Origin: a virus
Direction: 5' to 3' (one strand)
Length of the DNA: 64,000 nt
Virus record (IMG/VR): IMGVR_UViG_3300028374_000796
The notes under the pieces were generated by a model. The model saw nothing but the letters and a program-made list of their open reading frames with translations, did not search any database and had not been told where the DNA came from. Every line of letters begins with the position of its first letter. The first letter of the stretch is position 1. Both the position numbers and the translations under genes were made by a program. Below, piece by piece: positions 6,382-61,005 of this stretch.

Positions 6382-6786
6382 TTAGATGCGAGACTGTTCT
6401 TTATACAGTTCAATCATATCCACGATCTTACCTGCTGCGAACGTCTCACCAGTACGGGAGGGATCATTCACACTTCGGGGTCCGGTTCCGGAAATCTGTA
6501 CGATCACGGTGCCTTCGTCGAACCGGACAGAATATTTCATCTGACGAGGATCGAAAGATACCTCAGTGTCCTGACCGCGATAAGATACTATATAATGATG
6601 TCTTCCGACCTTTTTAACGGATCTCATAGCCTCTTGTTTCTTTTCCTCACGATATTTGATATAAGCGGGATCCCAGTCTTCTTCTGAAGCGTTAACTTCG
6701 ACCGCTGCAATAATTTTTTGGAGATGAGGTCTAAGTTCAGGGGTATCAGAACCCAAACGAATAAGTTGGTTTTTCAAGTTTGACAT
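6382..6786 (-). CDS. Hypothetical protein with the shared N-terminal leader
   Basis: Begins MSNLKNQLIRLGSDTPELRPHLQKII. Confidence 0.85.
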   Translation of the reverse strand: MSNLKNQLIRLGSDTPELRPHLQKIIAAVEVNASEEDWDPAYIKYREEKKQEAMRSVKKVGRHHYIVSYRGQDTEVSFDPRQMKYSVRFDEGTVIVQISGTGPRSVNDPSRTGETFAAGKIVDMIELYKEQSRI

Positions 6787-9263: not shown

Positions 9264-12200
9264 TTAGCCACAAGAGCCATTTCCACAATCTAGGCATTTG
9301 TCGCAGCCTCCCTCGTAAATCAGATTCGGAGAGCCACATGCCTCACACTCTTTTCCAACCACTACCGTACCGTCCTCGATGTGAGACGTAAGAAACTTAC
9401 GGGCGGCAGTGAGGGTAGAGGCGATATAATCGCCTTCGATGTCTGTGAGTGCATGTACGACGGACACAATACCAATATTATGCCTGAGAGCCATACCAAT
9501 CATCTTACAGAGACGAACATGATGGAGATCGTCTTTGATCTTTTCCAACTGTTCATATACCAGATCAAAGTCAACCCCTTTTCCAATAAGGAGCTTGGTT
9601 ACACTTTTAACAGCTCTATTTAGAGAAACATATTCTCCATCTGCCATGTCATTTGTATGAACCCAAAAAGCAATTGGAAACTGATCATCATCGGGGAGAT
9701 AGGAAAGATGAAGATAATATTTATTACCTTCTGCTTTTACTTTTACCGTATCGCCGTTACTGAATTTGGGAGGCAATTTAGTATCCCTTACGATAACACC
9801 TTCGTCGGTAATCTCAGCGTCTTCGTCCAGTAAGCCCCTCTCTTTAAGTAATTCAGAGAGTGAACTAGCTGTAGATTTAGAGGTTGGTTCGGATCCCGAA
9901 ACTGCCAGTACGTTTTCCATGATCCCATCTCTGTAGGTAGTGAAGCCTACCAACTTGGCTTTCCATGCCTGAACATAGAGATCTTTGAACTCATCAAAGG
10001 GATAGTTCTTTGGTAAGTTACAGGTTTTAGATACTGACTGATCACAGCTTTCTTGGATAAGAGCTTGGACTTGAACATGCTCATTTACTTTAAGGTCTTG
10101 CGCTGTTGACAAATATTCTGCGTCCTGATCGATATCATTGGGAAAATGTTTTAGGACCCAACTATATCCATAGTCCTGTACTTTCTCTACAAAGCACAGT
10201 CCTCGGTTATGAGGTTCATAGTGCCACATCCTTCCGTTATACTCCCCTCTCCATGCGGTAGAATCTCCAACTTCCACTTCTTCAAGGATGTCTTTTACAT
10301 TGTCCCTTGTCAGACCGTGGGGCCACTTATCTGAAATTACAGTTCGATCATATCCGAAAGAGAAGACCGGCTCAATTCCATTTGATACCATATCACAAAT
10401 AACTGATGAGTTCCCTAGAGGCGGATTCGTCAGTCTTTTAGCATTCCTGAGACCATATTGACGAACCAATTCTTTGGTGCTGTCCGCTGCGGTACAGTAG
10501 TCCTTGAAATAAGGAGTATCCAGATATTTTTCCTCATACATTGGGAAAGGACCACGTTCTCTAGCCAAAAGAGCAGATGCTCTAAGGGTTTCATCATCCT
10601 TAGCCTGTTGAATTCTACGGACAAATTCATTACCTCCATCCCCACCATAGCGGATCCCCATCATAAACATGGCAGATCCCAGACCATTCACTCCCATTCC
10701 ATATTGACGGATGTTTTTAAGTGCCCAATCATATGCAGGAAGAGGAACCGCGCCGATATCATTCACATTATCTAACATTCGTGCAAAGGTATTAATAGCG
10801 TCTCTATAGCCTTCATAATCAAAAGACCTATCATCCCTTACAAATCTAGTGAGATTGACTGAGCCTAGCAGACAGACCGTTGTAAACCCGATGAGGTGGT
10901 TATCAAAATCTCCCATATAAGGTTCTAGATAGGGGGCTGGTTTGTATCCTTTATCCAAGTAGGAAGTTCCTGGAATTTCGCCACACCCTCTAGATACAAT
11001 ACCGTGCGTATTCCAGTCATCAGACTTAGGTTCATATAAATCGTAAACTGTATCCTTTCCATCTAGTTCAATGGATTCTATTTTCACCTTCCACTTTGTT
11101 CCAGTTAACTGCCTACCGCATACAATACTCTCTAACTGATCATGTTTATCCGGGTGTGAAATACCTCCGGTAAACCTATAAACAGCCTCAATACAATCAT
11201 TAGTTAAATGACCTTCATACACATCGTGATTCCGAACAACCTCTCTACCATAGATCGACCGAAGATCGCCCGCCTTAGCCACCTCATACAATTTATAATC
11301 AGCACCAGAGATCAAGCAAACTTCTCTAAAAAAGTTGTGCAATTTTTGACTAGTGCTTTTAAAACGGATGGACGGATATCGACTTGAACGATTAACATTA
11401 CCATCAGAACTAATTAATCCATCTAGAACCCCAGAGAGAAACTCTGAGTTACTATTCAACCACCATTCAGGGGGACATTTCTCATGAGAATATTGAAGGT
11501 TATCAAGACCTACTTTTTCAAAAAATTCAGAAGCTGCCTTAGACTGCACCCTCAAGTGCATCGCATTTCCTTCTGCGCTGTGGTCTTCACAAAAAGTCAT
11601 TCCTGCCTTTTCCAAAGCCCCCGTAAGATAAGAATTATCTTCGACTGAATTGGCAGACAAAATAAACCTTTTAAGTTCCGACCGACAACCATCCCCCAAC
11701 CAATATCCCGCTAGAAATCCATCGTTCCTAGTAAGATCTATTCTGTTAGTAGTTTTAAACCGATAAGGCTGCTTTCTAACATAATCCCCGACTTTCAAAT
11801 CCTTTAGGCGGACGGTATTATCCCATTTTTTACGGCAATTTGAATTCTGCATAACATGGAAAATATGTCCTTCAGTTACACGAAGAGAAGTACCGTCTGA
11901 AAACTTCACTAAATACACGGGACAGTCCTCATGTACTTCTATTTCCTGAACAGGATCAAAACCTAAAGATGTTTGGATTTTATCTCCAACCTTAACATCT
12001 TCAACAGGGACAAGACCTTTCTCCGTAGCAACTAAAGTACCTTTAGCAACGCAGGGATTACTTGCAGTAACAGGACCTAGATACACCAGGGGATTTTGAC
12101 GATTCATATTGTCAAAGAAAAGAACGCCGGGTTCTGCTCGGTTATAAGTAGACTCCATAATAAGATCGTAGAGTTCTACTGCTTTTACCTGCTTATAGGT

Positions 12201-13091
12201 CTTTCCTTCAAAATGAAGGTCATACATGGTATCGTTTTCTACAGCTTCCATGAAGGCATCATCTACCAGAACGCTGATATTGAATTTCGTGAGCTTTCCA
12301 CTTTCTTGCTTGGCTCTTACGAATTCTTCAATGTCGGGATGCCAGATAGGAAGGGCGGCTAACATAGCGCCTTTCCGGGGCATAACTTTTTCGATTCGAT
12401 CCTGCGTATCATCGTCCAGATGATTAGTTAGACGATCCTCGTAGCCATCATTATCTCCTTTAACGATCATAGCAGACATTTTGTCCCATAGTTCCATATA
12501 AGAAACTACTCCGGGATGACGAATGCCAACCCCTTTGATCAGAGTTCCACGGGGACGAATGAATCCAAAATTGATTCCGTATCCGCCTTCGCTTTTTAGA
12601 GTGTCTGCTGCTTCCAGTAGAGACAAGAAAATATTAGTGAGAGAATCCGGTGTTTGATCCGTTTCCATATCACAAACGATCTTAGCATCTGTATTAGGAA
12701 CGCTCTTTGCGTAAGAAATCTTAGCGTCAGAAACAGGAGAATTTATGAAGCAATTAAGTAGAGTTGCTTTATCAAAGATTGTTCCTGCATTCGCAGTAAT
12801 ACGTCCCCCTGTGGTGCATTTAAGGCCGTCTGCGACCCATCGTTCCCCTTCCAGATCTACATAAAAGTCTTCACCACCTTTGTCAGATTCCTTAGCAGGT
12901 TTAAAATCCACCAACGTTTTCAAAAATCGATCGTACCATACTTCTACTTCTTTTTCTGTAGCTTCATAATGGGATCTTTCCACTTCTGCCAGGGCCCTAG
13001 CAACTCTTTGAAAAGTTTCAAGGGGTGTTTCGTCTCCGAATCTATATTTAGTCTCCCAGTTTTCGCGTGCTAAAAGGGTTTTAAAAATCAT
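9264..13091 (-). CDS. nrdJ: Class II (AdoCbl-dependent) ribonucleotide reductase with an intein
   Basis: GGRITANAG, LLNCF, EGGYGINFGFIRPRG, FNISV, EPGVLF, NP|CGE split by the intein, CLLGSVNL, PPLGNSS, VSKTCNLP, C-terminal zinc ribbon. Confidence 0.95.
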   Translation of the reverse strand: MIFKTLLARENWETKYRFGDETPLETFQRVARALAEVERSHYEATEKEVEVWYDRFLKTLVDFKPAKESDKGGEDFYVDLEGERWVADGLKCTTGGRITANAGTIFDKATLLNCFINSPVSDAKISYAKSVPNTDAKIVCDMETDQTPDSLTNIFLSLLEAADTLKSEGGYGINFGFIRPRGTLIKGVGIRHPGVVSYMELWDKMSAMIVKGDNDGYEDRLTNHLDDDTQDRIEKVMPRKGAMLAALPIWHPDIEEFVRAKQESGKLTKFNISVLVDDAFMEAVENDTMYDLHFEGKTYKQVKAVELYDLIMESTYNRAEPGVLFFDNMNRQNPLVYLGPVTASNPCVAKGTLVATEKGLVPVEDVKVGDKIQTSLGFDPVQEIEVHEDCPVYLVKFSDGTSLRVTEGHIFHVMQNSNCRKKWDNTVRLKDLKVGDYVRKQPYRFKTTNRIDLTRNDGFLAGYWLGDGCRSELKRFILSANSVEDNSYLTGALEKAGMTFCEDHSAEGNAMHLRVQSKAASEFFEKVGLDNLQYSHEKCPPEWWLNSNSEFLSGVLDGLISSDGNVNRSSRYPSIRFKSTSQKLHNFFREVCLISGADYKLYEVAKAGDLRSIYGREVVRNHDVYEGHLTNDCIEAVYRFTGGISHPDKHDQLESIVCGRQLTGTKWKVKIESIELDGKDTVYDLYEPKSDDWNTHGIVSRGCGEIPGTSYLDKGYKPAPYLEPYMGDFDNHLIGFTTVCLLGSVNLTRFVRDDRSFDYEGYRDAINTFARMLDNVNDIGAVPLPAYDWALKNIRQYGMGVNGLGSAMFMMGIRYGGDGGNEFVRRIQQAKDDETLRASALLARERGPFPMYEEKYLDTPYFKDYCTAADSTKELVRQYGLRNAKRLTNPPLGNSSVICDMVSNGIEPVFSFGYDRTVISDKWPHGLTRDNVKDILEEVEVGDSTAWRGEYNGRMWHYEPHNRGLCFVEKVQDYGYSWVLKHFPNDIDQDAEYLSTAQDLKVNEHVQVQALIQESCDQSVSKTCNLPKNYPFDEFKDLYVQAWKAKLVGFTTYRDGIMENVLAVSGSEPTSKSTASSLSELLKERGLLDEDAEITDEGVIVRDTKLPPKFSNGDTVKVKAEGNKYYLHLSYLPDDDQFPIAFWVHTNDMADGEYVSLNRAVKSVTKLLIGKGVDFDLVYEQLEKIKDDLHHVRLCKMIGMALRHNIGIVSVVHALTDIEGDYIASTLTAARKFLTSHIEDGTVVVGKECEACGSPNLIYEGGCDKCLDCGNGSCG
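10986..12053 (-). mobile_element. Intein with LAGLIDADG homing endonuclease (356 aa), atypical C-terminus
   Basis: Starts CVAKGTLV after extein ASNP; LAGLIDADG-like GFLAGYWLGDG and LDGLISSDG; ends TVYDLYEPKSDDWNTHGIVSRG before extein CGEIP. Confidence 0.92.
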
Positions 13092-29511: not shown

Positions 29512-29889
29512 TTAGAGGGCTTTTCTTTCCTCAGATTCTTTCATGGATTCTTGAATTGGAAGTCGCGATACTTTTTCGGCGGTAAGGTATTCGCTGGCTT
29601 CCTTTTGAGAAAGAATTACCAAACAAATAGGTTTAGGACGTACCCATTTTTCCCATTTATTGAGGATCGTTTTAAACAGTTCTTGTAATTCTTCCAGATT
29701 ATCGGAAGTTTCATAGAAATTATATTTGTAGGGAAACCAGGTAGGGAAATCCCCATTCCTTTTCTTAATCCTAGCCAGTGCATATTTCTTTCCCTTAAAG
29801 TCACTTTCTTTGACCTCCATATAAAGGGATTCTTTTTGCTGATCCTCGGTAGTTATGTCAACCTTAAGTGTTTTGATTAAATCAAACAT
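29512..29889 (-). CDS. Hypothetical protein
   Basis: 125-aa ORF. Confidence 0.65.
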   Translation of the reverse strand: MFDLIKTLKVDITTEDQQKESLYMEVKESDFKGKKYALARIKKRNGDFPTWFPYKYNFYETSDNLEELQELFKTILNKWEKWVRPKPICLVILSQKEASEYLTAEKVSRLPIQESMKESEERKAL

Positions 29890-30013
29890 GGTGGTCGCCT
29901 TCTCTCAATGGTCAAAATTCAAAAGGAACTCTATAGGAATCTAGAGTTAAGGTCAAGCTTGCTTCTCACTCTAGAACCTGATACATTATGAAAAGGCATG
30001 TAACTTTCTATAA

Positions 30014-30310
30014 ATGAGAAGTAGTATTATGACGACAAGCAGAGATCCGATAAAAGAATGCTTTAACGATAGCGCTGAATTTGGTCTTTTCAAAGATGGA
30101 GATCTGATTGTAAGTTCCAGTGATCCTGAAGAATTAGAAATGTATATCAGTGTCCGCAGTAAAATGCCTTTTCCTGTTCCAACCTTTACCATAGAGGAAT
30201 TAGAAACTTCTGAAAATGCGGTAGAAGAAGACTCTCAGGAACCTGATGTAGAAAAAGAAAAGGCTATCCTAGTAGATCCTGAGGAGGATAAGGAAGAAGA
30301 TAGTACTTGA
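30014..30310 (+). CDS. Small acidic hypothetical protein
   Basis: 98-aa ORF; its stop codon overlaps the -35 box of the next promoter. Confidence 0.65.
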   Translation: MRSSIMTTSRDPIKECFNDSAEFGLFKDGDLIVSSSDPEELEMYISVRSKMPFPVPTFTIEELETSENAVEEDSQEPDVEKEKAILVDPEEDKEEDST

Positions 30311-30335
30311 CATAGGAATAAATATCCTCTAATCT
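30307..30335 (+). promoter_or_regulatory. Sigma-70-type promoter for the tmRNA-like RNA
   Basis: TTGACA-N17-TAATCT. Confidence 0.75.
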
Positions 30336-30352
30336 TGGTTGGAAGTGACAAA

Positions 30353-30482
30353 GGGGGTGTACTGGTTTCGACTTGGATGTTGAGGCTAATGTAGCATTCA
30401 GGAGTTGATCGAACGGCTCCTTAAAAAATCGATCCGTTTATAATTGCATCAATCTTCGTTTCCTCCCTACCCGGGAGGATGA
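30353..30482 (+). ncRNA. ssrA: tmRNA 5' fragment (acceptor 5' strand, D-loop, helix 2 strand, pseudoknot 1, resume signal); no 3' half found
   Basis: GGGGGTGTACTGGTTTCGAC start; PK1 stems GGAG/CTCC (30401-4/30417-20) and GATCGA/TCGATC (30407-12/30429-34); ATAATT-GCA resume context at 30446; then hairpin TCCTCCC/GGGAGGA. Confidence 0.75.
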
Positions 30483-30484
30483 TT

Positions 30485-32179
30485 CTACCTGTTCAAAAAC
30501 CAGTTTATAATAAACCAGACCTCATCCAACCCTAGGATGGGGTCTTTTATTAGGGGCCTATTATACCATGCTATTTGAAAATAAGAACTATCCCGACACT
30601 CTCCTATCTGTACGGGACCGTCTTTTTGTATTTCAAAGGTTCTTTCCACCTCCTCGGGTGGTGTTCCAAACTCCGTAACGACTTCACCACCTCCTTGAAG
30701 CGTCTTATACAGATCGATATCTGTAACTTCATCGGGAGAGGAGGAATACACCTCATTTATGATAGCGTCTAGGATAAACTCTCCTCCCACAGTCTGCCCT
30801 CTCAGTAGGATAGAAAAAGCATCGTTTCCGTCAAAAGCCTCCTTAAAAATAGCAGTACGGTGTTGGGATGTGCATCCATTTGTAGTGATTACAAGGTCTT
30901 TTTTGGACCGATCAGTTGGGGAAGTTCGGATCCTCATTACAAGTCCGTTATTCCCTGCCTTGAAGATCTTGCAATTGCCTTTTATCCTACCTGATATAAA
31001 TATTGTATATTCTGAATTTGCTAAGAGAGACCCTAAAGGAGCAGTAGAACCAATCCCATCTTTTGGATATTGTAGTGCAGGGCCTCCTCCATAATAATCT
31101 TTTCTATACTTGGGCCTCAACTCCAAATCTACATGAGAAGAAAAATCTCTATTGCTATCTGAATTGGAAGCTATTCCTTTCCATGTGGGAACTCGATCGC
31201 AGTCGTCAAAATTTTCCTCAGAAGGGTTTGTGGCGGTGTGCCAAGAGATAACTCCCAGAAGATCTCCAGGATCGTGAGTAGGAATAGCTGTACTCGACGA
31301 CAAGCTCTTTGATGTCTGCGCACCTGTTCTGATAACTCTTCCTACAGACTCCGTATCTGAAAGGCTCTGAAGAGTTGAGGAAGACCGAAATTTACCCTCC
31401 AAATTAGATGCTATTTGTCTTAGTTCATATTGATATGGCTTTTTCCTGAGAATTAACATATCTGCAATGTCAGCATCAAGCAATCCATGCCTATCGTGAT
31501 ACCCTAATTGGACCAGACCCGCAGTATTTAATTTTAAGGAAGACCCTGATACCAAATAAGGGGCATGAGCTTTTAAATCAAAATAAGCCTTTTCATTTAA
31601 ATTAGGACCAAACGAAAATGAATAGAGTTTCCATTCTCCAACCTGAGCCTCAGTTCGGTAGCGGGCACTTCCTTCCCCGGACCTTAATTGTAATTCTACC
31701 ATATCTCCATTTAGAAAAAGATCTGCGGACGCCGTCCCCACTCGAAAAAGAGTTCCTATCCTTATTGGAATCCTAAGTTGATCATTTATGGGATAGGGAC
31801 GAATACGTACTAGAGCCAGAACTGTTATACTAGTAGTGGAATTCTTAACGTGCCTAGCATCTATAATTTCATTGGAGGATAAAAAGTCACCCCTTTCAGA
31901 ATCGAATTCTAAATAGGACAATGCTTTATGATAATCTCGAAGAAGCCGTGGACCGGGATTTATGAAGGATGTTAGAGCTAAAGGACCTTCAAAAATTTCG
32001 GAATCTATATGTCCGAAATTCTTTTCTACCTCATTTACATTATATCGTGCTAGCATATTTCCTGAATATGTGGTAGATATAGTAGTAGAAATAGATCTTG
32101 TGGAGACTGAAACAACCGATCCAAAGTTTTCAGAAGAGGAGATCGAGATTAATTGGGATTTACCTGTAACATTTGCCAT
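30485..32179 (-). CDS. Beta-rich protein with a probable LamG/concanavalin-like domain (possibly structural or receptor-binding)
   Basis: 564 aa; WKLYSFSF, LVQLG...ADIADMLILRK..YQYEL pattern resembles LamG domains. Confidence 0.6.
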   Translation of the reverse strand: MANVTGKSQLISISSSENFGSVVSVSTRSISTTISTTYSGNMLARYNVNEVEKNFGHIDSEIFEGPLALTSFINPGPRLLRDYHKALSYLEFDSERGDFLSSNEIIDARHVKNSTTSITVLALVRIRPYPINDQLRIPIRIGTLFRVGTASADLFLNGDMVELQLRSGEGSARYRTEAQVGEWKLYSFSFGPNLNEKAYFDLKAHAPYLVSGSSLKLNTAGLVQLGYHDRHGLLDADIADMLILRKKPYQYELRQIASNLEGKFRSSSTLQSLSDTESVGRVIRTGAQTSKSLSSSTAIPTHDPGDLLGVISWHTATNPSEENFDDCDRVPTWKGIASNSDSNRDFSSHVDLELRPKYRKDYYGGGPALQYPKDGIGSTAPLGSLLANSEYTIFISGRIKGNCKIFKAGNNGLVMRIRTSPTDRSKKDLVITTNGCTSQHRTAIFKEAFDGNDAFSILLRGQTVGGEFILDAIINEVYSSSPDEVTDIDLYKTLQGGGEVVTEFGTPPEEVERTFEIQKDGPVQIGECRDSSYFQIAWYNRPLIKDPILGLDEVWFIINWFLNR

Positions 32180-60204: not shown

Positions 60205-61005
60205 TTACGCTTCAACAAATTCTCCCTTGTCATTTAACTTGTACGCAACATCTGGCAGTAACCCATCTTCTCCGATGTATCCAACTTTTGTTCTCCTTCT
60301 GCCCTCACAATAATACTCTATCATTATCTGTCCATATTCGCCAGCTTTGGCAGTTCCATACTTGCCAGCACTGGCTGATCCAAACTTGCCAACAGTAGCG
60401 GTACCATGTCTTCCCGCAGTGGCAGTTCCATACTTGCCAGCACTGGCTGATCCAAACTTGTCAACAGTAGCGGTACCATATTCGCCAGCAGTAGCTGAGC
60501 CATCATATCCAGCACTGGCTGATCCAAACTTGCCAACAGTAGCGGTACCATTATCTCCGACAATGGCTGTACCATGTCTTCCCGCAGTGGCAGTTCCATG
60601 GTCCCCAGCAGTGGCTGTGCCACCCTTCCTAACTTCAACAGTCGCCCCAATGACATCTGTATGGCCTCTATCTAGCAGGTAGCTAGTGGCAGAAGATTGA
60701 TCTCCTACATGAACAACTCTGGCCCAAGGGGCCTTCACTTTACCTACAAGATCTACGATCAGATCTGTTGGCATCTCTACGACCATCCAGATGGCACTCT
60801 CACTCCAGTCTAACAGGTTGCCCTTCCCCTTACCGTATAGGGCACCCTGCAGTCCACCTCCACAGACGGCTTCATCTGTCCAGTCATCGCAGGCAGCTAC
60901 AGACCCAATTTCCAAGGGCCACTGGAAACCCCTGTCGGATGTTCCATCCGAGTTACAGGTTCTCAATACTAAAGAAGTTTCCACATCTAGGTTAAAGTCT
61001 TCCAT
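60205..61005 (-). CDS. Phage protein with 8-aa Gly/Ala/Thr repeats (probable beta-solenoid)
   Basis: N-terminal LVLRTC...GFQWP...CGGGLQG; repeats of TATAGxxG; C-terminal VGYIGEDGL.PDVAYKL. Confidence 0.85.
   Translation of the reverse strand: MEDFNLDVETSLVLRTCNSDGTSDRGFQWPLEIGSVAACDDWTDEAVCGGGLQGALYGKGKGNLLDWSESAIWMVVEMPTDLIVDLVGKVKAPWARVVHVGDQSSATSYLLDRGHTDVIGATVEVRKGGTATAGDHGTATAGRHGTAIVGDNGTATVGKFGSASAGYDGSATAGEYGTATVDKFGSASAGKYGTATAGRHGTATVGKFGSASAGKYGTAKAGEYGQIMIEYYCEGRRRTKVGYIGEDGLLPDVAYKLNDKGEFVEA
60340..60630. repeat. 24-bp coding tandem repeats organised in 72-bp higher-order units
   Basis: CAGCACTGGCTGATCCAAACTTG recurs at 60366, 60438 and 60510 (72-bp spacing). Confidence 0.85.

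Follow-up and report, generated by a model that had tools for sequence, protein, structure and literature searches.

Transfer-messenger RNAs (tmRNAs) are carried by huge phages (PMC7162821), in which compact CRISPR arrays and CRISPR systems without adaptation genes are also on record (PMC7162821; PMC11656645). Furthermore, tmRNA pseudogenes that miss one end are a recognised category (PMC4131195). The locus described here lies in virus record IMGVR_UViG_3300028374_000796, of which a stretch of 64,000 nucleotides (nt), hereafter the window, was analysed, and the interpretation that we prefer is a tmRNA pseudogene joined to a viral solitary repeat unit. Judging from the alignments, what survives at positions 30353-30449 is the 5' fifth of a one-piece tmRNA gene of about 450 nt of the large-phage kind. 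We consider it probable that the locus is a tmRNA relic cut at the junction with a solitary type I-E CRISPR repeat, the tmRNA part being a passenger or a 5' leader. The features that carry this reading are as follows:

30353-30372, plus strand: tmRNA acceptor 5' strand (GGGGGTG) and D-loop signature, GGGGGTGTACTGGTTTCGAC; an exact 20-mer in phage tmRNAs, invariant in alignments A1 and A4.
30373-30399, plus strand: 5' strand of helix P2, recognised by alignment to full phage tmRNAs, with no 3' partner in the window.
30400-30434, plus strand: pseudoknot 1, with stem 1 at 30400-30404/30417-30421 and stem 2 at 30407-30412/30429-30434; 11/11 pairs and covariation in the family.
30446-30448, plus strand: resume codon GCA, preceded by TTTATAATT; the GCA is invariant in alignment A4.
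30458-30486, plus strand: solitary type I-E CRISPR repeat of 29 nt, GTTTCCTCCCTACCCGGGAGGATGATTCT, identical to array repeats.

The tmRNA 5' signature, the well-paired pseudoknot 1 and the resume context had been noticed in a first-pass annotation of this DNA, and each of them was borne out. The 20-mer at the start of the relic occurs exactly in 36 IMG/VR contigs, and in 29 of these the same spot is called as a tmRNA by ARAGORN, many of the called genes sitting within tRNA clusters of large phage contigs; most of the remaining 7 are cut by the end of the locus or align as full tmRNAs. All 11 pairs of pseudoknot 1 form in the window, two of them compensated relative to the one-piece phage tmRNA of L006. 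In an alignment of 11 phage tmRNA sequences 98% of the pseudoknot 1 cells were paired, as against 76% in shuffles; both-sided changes were seen in 10 of the 11 pairs and none of 500 shuffles was as good, while slid controls dropped to 18-47% paired. Pseudoknot 1 is real. The homology to tmRNA ends at 30449, that is, at the resume codon or within about 3 nt of it, and beyond this point the window diverges in the alignment from all full tmRNAs; the one-piece phage tmRNAs of about 440-460 nt (L002, L004, L006, L011, L013, L017, L029 and L031) align only through the resume codon. Identity between the window and these tmRNAs is 57-69% over the first ~100 nt, and among the members of the family it is 65-99%. 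Of 47 otherwise invariant columns of the family, 7 are altered in the window, and 3 of these lie in the A-rich tract before the resume codon, a pattern that hints at relaxed constraint. It was also observed that reading from the aligned GCA gives unusually long acidic tags in the phage tmRNA family in IMG/VR (L002, L004, L006, L007, L013, L017, L023, L029 and L031; ~450 nt), the tag of L006 being AESNNSDLLTEAEYIFNNADEILAGAEEFSLAA, and that in L013, L023 and L029 ARAGORN begins the tag later or misses the gene.

The first-pass annotation had held that the frame from the resume codon lacks an ALAA-type degron. The frame does read as it was given there (ASIFVSSLPGRMILPV…), with no hydrophobic degron (LAA), in which the relatives end, and no nearby stop. 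Codons 5-14 of this supposed tag frame are the CRISPR repeat, VSSLPGRMI being the repeat translated, so that the tag open reading frame (ORF) of the annotation is a type I-E CRISPR repeat in sense orientation.

The missing half was sought in several ways. ARAGORN called no tmRNA in the window and none at this locus, though it calls many permuted phage tmRNAs elsewhere, and Rfam RF00023 reached 24 bits on the window, below its gathering score of 47, with a good alignment over the first ~100 nt only, low posterior probability thereafter and 6 nt at the T arm where 18 are expected. With Rfam in E-value mode no second tmRNA piece was found in the whole window. A pattern of T arm plus acceptor, allowing up to 3 mismatches, had 0 matches in the window, in agreement with the manual search that preceded it, and none in ~105 kb of related contigs (L037-L051), while the complement of the P2 5' strand was met in the window only as G-U-rich chance runs; the partner search that had been proposed over the full genome, as far as it was carried through the window and these contigs, gave no partner. 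An 18-mer specific to P2 had 5 chance matches in IMG/VR, all in coding sequence. As had been reported, no acceptor piece lies just upstream; an ORF of 98 amino acids (aa) is found there instead. Rejected as acceptor 3' strands were CACCTCC at 30647, put forward by the forced alignment of Rfam, which is antisense to conserved codons (E-V) of the neighbouring gene P0001, lacks a T arm and continues with T instead of ACCA, and exact CACCTCCA sites at 60855 and 61511, upstream of which there is no T arm. Set against the full tmRNAs, the gene has lost whatever follows the resume codon, from the tag and pseudoknots 2-4 to the P2 3' strand, the T arm and the acceptor 3' strand. Since it has neither an acceptor 3' strand nor a T arm, the fragment by itself is unfit for charging with alanine by alanyl-tRNA synthetase, for which an acceptor stem with its 3' strand (G3:U70, ACCA end) is needed, and it cannot rescue ribosomes as a tmRNA.

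The repeat has the consensus GTTTCCTCCCTACCCGGGAGGATGATTC(C/T). The window copy is 28/28 identical (30458-30485) to arrays in L038, L042, L043, L044, L047 and L048, and its 29th base is C or T in the arrays as well. The repeat hairpin has a 7-bp stem (30461-30467/30473-30479) and a 5-nt loop (30468-30472), with a folding energy of -12.8 kcal/mol and a tail (A)UGAUUCU, and this layout of stem, loop and 3' tail is that of type I-E. With a 21+8 geometry, which we take to be as in type I-E of E. coli, Cas6e would cut after 30478 and give an 8-nt handle (30479-30486). The repeat is single-copy in the window at up to 3 mismatches. Logan contigs (k=31) from four lake and salt-lake runs were aligned to window positions 29800-31200, and parts without cover in runs X4, X7 and X9 were not counted as evidence. 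The summed depth at 30456/8-30485/6 was 936, against ~15 for the flanks; 43 records matched the repeat in one run, and contigs broke precisely at it. In unitigs of 88-90 nt two direct copies of the 29-mer are separated by 30-31 unrelated letters, which differ in three runs, and unitigs at repeat junctions have 7-18x depth, near the 15x of the phage. The exact repeat was not found in GTDB genomes or IMG/VR, and a degenerate repeat pattern gave in GTDB 30 single-copy chance matches and no arrays. No bacterial genome with this repeat was found in GTDB, and the phage lineage carries the cognate Cascade.

The lineage was traced by scanning metagenome contigs of the Joint Genome Institute (JGI) with the 24-mer core of the repeat, which returned 15 stretches (L037-L051). 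They hold arrays in which 3-7 repeats follow one another at a strict period of 61 nt (29-nt repeat, 32-nt spacer), with several arrays per contig and many at contig ends, as well as solitary copies, and the array leader is conserved and ends in the palindrome GTGAC-TTTTT-GTCAC. Two of the contigs (L038 2869-7756 and L049 8441-13328) encode Cas7e, Cas6e, Cas5e, Cas8e and Cas11e, found with Pfam and PADLOC at E-values of 1e-11 to 1e-71, and no cas1 or cas2 was found in the L038/L049 sequence examined. Just upstream of cas7e (L038:2532-2620, L049:8104-8190) stands a repeat that 27 nt separate from a truncated repeat (GTTTCCTCCCgtattt), an arrangement that could be a CRISPR RNA-like (crRNA-like) autoregulator of the Cascade operon. 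The order of this type I-E effector operon, cas7e-cas6e-cas5e-cas8e-cas11e on phage-like contigs, is an unusual one. The array-bearing contigs encode many ORFs without a known family, tRNAs, an intein-bearing IMPDH, adenylosuccinate synthetase, thymidine kinase, aspartate carbamoyltransferase and NAD synthase, and by this content they look like phage. The IMPDH in L047:2505-4688 (minus strand) has an intein/LAGLIDADG insertion, and so has the large subunit of ribonucleotide reductase in the window (9264-13091, minus strand).

The motif TATATACCCTGG has 9 intergenic sites in the window, versus 0.2 expected, is also found in L039, L045, L047 and L051, is absent from the 36 IMG/VR loci and is probably a lineage-specific promoter. 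Its sites in the window are:

6284, 26551, 43422, 60149 and 61059, plus strand, and 45922, 47415, 56093 and 57711, minus strand: TATATACCCTGG, often followed by …AATTACAAA.

Judging by the common motif, leader, repeat and depth, the Cascade-bearing contigs would belong to the phage lineage of the window, and the repeat at 30458-30486 is, on these comparisons, that of the Cascade system carried by this giant-phage lineage. Repeats in the lineage also take part in rearrangement and stand before genes. L038 has a leader and a 6-repeat array at 700-1190 where L049 is unrelated (6560-6760), and homology resumes exactly after the last repeat. In L039/L045, L040, L042, L047 and L048 the last array repeat or a solitary repeat lies 10-20 nt before a ribosome-binding-like site and an ATG, and arrays or single repeats are thus placed in the 5' leaders of protein genes such as thymidine kinase (L047) and NAD synthase (L040), which suggests that repeats are RNA processing sites in the lineage.

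A further trace of the tmRNA was found in L037:1010-1035 (minus strand), where a tRNA cluster is followed ~110 nt further on by a 25-nt remnant of a tmRNA 5' end, GGGGTGTACTGGTTTCGACTTGGAT. The remnant has the lineage-specific P2 start of the window (CTTGGAT), after which unrelated sequence and a small ORF follow, and it lies in the 5' leader of this ORF, which is Cys-rich and has a signal-peptide-like start. L037 carries arrays, and the same contig bears Cascade at its other end. Together with the window fragment, the remnant indicates that the phage group once had such a tmRNA, of which truncated copies are left. Other tRNA-related observations on these contigs are a tRNA-like sequence with a ~70-nt interruption, which may be an intron, between tRNA-Pro and tRNA-His in L037:1230-1390 (minus strand), and tRNAs with A34 anticodons (Asp-atc, Tyr-ata and Gly-acc) called by ARAGORN in L037, L041, L044 and L051. 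L046:4208-8464 (minus strand) encodes a 1418-aa Type ISP restriction-modification enzyme, and this contig also has a solitary repeat beside a tRNA-like gene.

Around the relic and the repeat, the following features bear on how the junction arose and on what RNA it could yield:

30014-30310, plus strand: upstream ORF of 98 aa with an acidic C-terminus, from the ORF list.
30307-30335, plus strand: promoter-like site read from the sequence, TTGACA at 30307-30312 and either TAATCT at 30330-30335 (17 nt) or TCTAAT at 30328-30333 (15 nt).
30485-32179, minus strand: convergent gene P0001, 564 aa, of no known family, from the ORF list and without match in Pfam and PHROGs.
30487-30518, plus strand: segment of 32 nt at spacer position, antisense to the last 10 P0001 codons, by protein alignment and target search.
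30517-30553, plus strand: terminator-like hairpin of 11 bp with a 7-nt loop (30517-30545), then TTTTATTA, from a terminator scan.

The stop codon of P0001 (30485-30487, TAG) is made of the last two bases of the repeat and one base of the flank. The sole relative of P0001 that was found, P0003, is 70% identical, and in the protein alignment P0001 ends 3 codons before P0003, exactly at the CRISPR repeat. With the tmRNA homology running to 30449, the repeat beginning at 30458 and the P0001 stop lying in the repeat 3 codons short, both edges of the repeat look like breakpoints, and recombination at the boundary of a CRISPR repeat would be the most likely origin of the cut in the tmRNA gene. No relative turned up in IMG/VR when it was searched with P0001, with the P0001+P0003 alignment, with an AAA ATPase and with a 754-aa protein, nor for the neighbouring genes in INPHARED (blastn and tblastn), nor in a scan of JGI metagenomes with the P0001+P0003 alignment. 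The 98-aa ORF had no match in Pfam or PHROGs, and a tRNA-Trp was the only find of ARAGORN in the window.

The promoter had been described as near-consensus. This holds for the -35 box, a perfect TTGACA, and not for the -10 box, which is weak (TAATCT is 3/6 to consensus), and the site was not listed by a consensus promoter scan. The stop codon of the 98-aa ORF overlaps the -35 box, so that read-through from the ORF could also supply a transcript. The hairpin had been placed at the stop of the convergent gene; the stop lies instead at 30485-30487, and the hairpin falls within the last 20 codons of P0001, where it encodes residues 545-554 (KDPILGLDEV), which are kept in P0003. It folds with -18.1 kcal/mol on the plus strand and -15.3 kcal/mol on the minus strand, and because it is located in conserved coding sequence it may be fortuitous. 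The 32-nt segment between repeat and hairpin had no other target in the sequence examined. A second repeat at 30519-30547, in the 61-nt register, was considered and rejected, as its identity is 13/29 where other terminal repeats give 10-14 at best offset. The spacers of arrays on related contigs had no match in the window.

We propose that RNA across the site would be made from the TTGACA promoter or by read-through of the 98-aa ORF, and that the Cas6e of the phage, by analogy with type I-E, may bind the repeat hairpin and cut at its base after 30478. The 5' product, of ~126 nt, would consist of the tmRNA relic and a Cas6e-capped hairpin, and the 3' product, of ~70 nt, would begin with the 8-nt crRNA handle and be antisense to the last 20 P0001 codons. 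The tmRNA part would play no role in trans-translation; it would be carried along as a passenger or form a structured 5' leader. As no ORF follows the repeat here, the effect, if there is any, would be on 3'-end formation, on stability or on P0001.

Several points weigh against this picture of a relic cut at a repeat. No independent contig bridges the repeat, and records 1 and 2 of run X1 overlap by 30 nt at it. The assignment of the Cascade-bearing contigs to the lineage of the window rests on the four shared properties given above. The -10 box is weak, and the terminator-like hairpin, lying in conserved coding sequence, could be fortuitous. Furthermore, the first 20 nt and pseudoknot 1 are intact, which fits a recent truncation and equally fits selection on the 5' part, and the same 25 nt survive at a second locus (L037) with unrelated flanks, which pure decay does not predict. 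It is conceivable, though rather improbable in our view, that the tmRNA 5' domain was kept on purpose as the body of a chimeric RNA whose 3' end is made and capped by Cas6e at the repeat and which has its own function. Such an RNA might be a stable, structured carrier that delivers or titrates Cas6e or Cascade, or a regulator of P0001, and the 25-nt tmRNA 5' end reused at L037 would then belong to the same design.

Of the other explanations, an unlikely one takes the repeat as the functional core, either as an RNA anti-CRISPR of the Racr type tying up the Cas6e, Cas7e or Cas5e of the host or of some competing phage, or as a one-guide mini-array loading Cascade, with the promoter and 5' end of the old tmRNA co-opted to drive the RNA. 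A perfect solitary repeat ~150 nt downstream of a TTGACA box is what has been seen in viral solitary repeat units (PMC10651486), and the 29-nt hairpin, followed by a U-run, begins exactly one spacer length after the repeat; in the genuine array of L043, too, the last repeat stands ~30 nt ahead of a terminator hairpin. Yet the lineage encodes the cognate Cascade, so that sequestration would turn on the system of the lineage itself, GTDB yielded no host array with this repeat, and the window is not hit by any array spacer. Moreover, the would-be second repeat is at background identity, and the 32-nt guide is the 3' end of P0001. The junction could also be an artefact of assembly, a longer array having collapsed to one repeat, in which case the relic would be an array leader, or the flanks coming from different repeat-bearing places. 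The first-pass annotation had itself named misassembly at about 30450 as a risk, and this risk is relevant here: the repeat is high-copy in the source metagenomes, many arrays of the lineage lie at contig ends, and the k=31 contigs end and start exactly at the repeat. That no Logan contig bridges it follows from a k of 31 that barely exceeds the length of the repeat. The two bases ahead of the repeat, however, agree from both sides: in X1 and X4 the contigs of the right flank open with TC and then enter the repeat, and the left flank ends in TC as well, an agreement with a probability of 1 in 16 had a spacer stood before the right flank. Furthermore, the flank depths are equal (15.1 and 15.9), and the JGI assemblies, in which arrays of 3-7 repeats are resolved, show solitary repeats that are identical between independent samples (L039/L045 and L038/L049). 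We therefore regard an artefact as quite unlikely, and as a 10,972-nt contig of X1 covers 29800-30485, at least one repeat directly adjoins the tmRNA relic in either case of artefact.

Of the three options offered by the first-pass annotation, a pseudogene, a trans-encoded two-piece tmRNA and a decoy, only the pseudogene fits the loss of everything after the resume codon and the remnant in L037. A split tmRNA, in which the piece would pair in trans with an acceptor and T-arm piece encoded outside the window, could draw on the perfectly kept first 20 nt and pseudoknot 1 and on the permuted two-piece tmRNAs that ARAGORN calls in phages. It is nevertheless very improbable, as neither the upstream sequence nor the window nor the related contigs yielded an acceptor piece, the frame after the resume codon is a CRISPR repeat, the A-rich tract before that codon is altered, and known two-piece tmRNAs derive from one permuted gene. 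SmpB binds the tRNA-like domain of tmRNA. A decoy of host trans-translation, binding SmpB or the ribosome, would have a parallel in the partial tmRNA of mycobacteriophage DS6A, which consists of the tRNA-like domain only and was discussed as a titrator of SmpB (PMC4131195); the window fragment is the opposite half, with no T arm and no complete acceptor stem, and of all the explanations considered we hold this one to be the least probable.

In the reading that we favour, a relic cut at a solitary repeat, the tempting but wrong lead of a new half or split tmRNA gives way to a testable picture, namely a giant lake phage with a type I-E Cascade in whose lineage single repeats are scattered, one of them marking the point where a tmRNA was cut. 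Should solitary repeats in a phage that encodes Cas6e serve as sites of RNA processing or 3' capping, this would be a use of CRISPR repeats outside immunity, and the locus, in which a structured leader and one repeat stand between a promoter-like site and a terminator-like hairpin, offers a compact unit in which this could be tested. It also indicates that recombination may break at the boundaries of repeats and thereby remodel the genes beside them.

The closest described systems each share a part of the locus. With the one-piece tmRNAs of large phages (L002, L004, L006, L011, L017, L029 and L031) the window has the first 20 nt in common to the letter, and the P2 5' strand, pseudoknot 1 and the GCA match, stem 2 (GATCGA/TCGATC) being identical in several; those genes run to ~440-460 nt, and their long acidic tags end in LAA; they also have additional pseudoknots, a T arm and CACCTCCACCA, all of which the window lacks beyond the GCA. 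Known tmRNA pseudogenes are likewise without one end, so that a tRNA-like domain cannot form. Known tmRNA fragments mostly go back to the integration of islands at the 3' end in bacteria, whereas here the fragment is in a phage and the break falls after the resume codon and abuts a CRISPR repeat. The partial tmRNA of mycobacteriophage DS6A (PMC4131195) is phage-borne as well, but it keeps the tRNA-like domain, while the window keeps only the 5' strand, pseudoknot 1 and the resume codon. On the CRISPR side, viral solitary repeat units and Racrs (Camara-Wilpert et al. 2023, PMC10651486) have, like the window, a single sense repeat after a promoter-like site, and an intact Cas6-type hairpin and handle are found in both; Racrs, which block interference through aberrant Cas-RNA complexes, mimic the repeats of a host in elements without cas genes, whereas the repeat of the window, for which no host array was found, matches the arrays of a phage lineage that carries Cascade. 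Viral mini-CRISPR arrays and CRISPR repeat-like regulatory RNAs (PMC6858448; bioRxiv 10.1101/2023.03.03.530964) have a repeat, a segment of spacer length and a hairpin, as does the window, although here the second repeat, often a degenerate one in such arrays, is not recognisable and the 32 nt have no target, and the segment belongs to the neighbouring gene rather than being an acquired spacer. The lineage itself does have a unit comparable to such mini-arrays, the repeat, 27 nt and truncated repeat upstream of cas7e.

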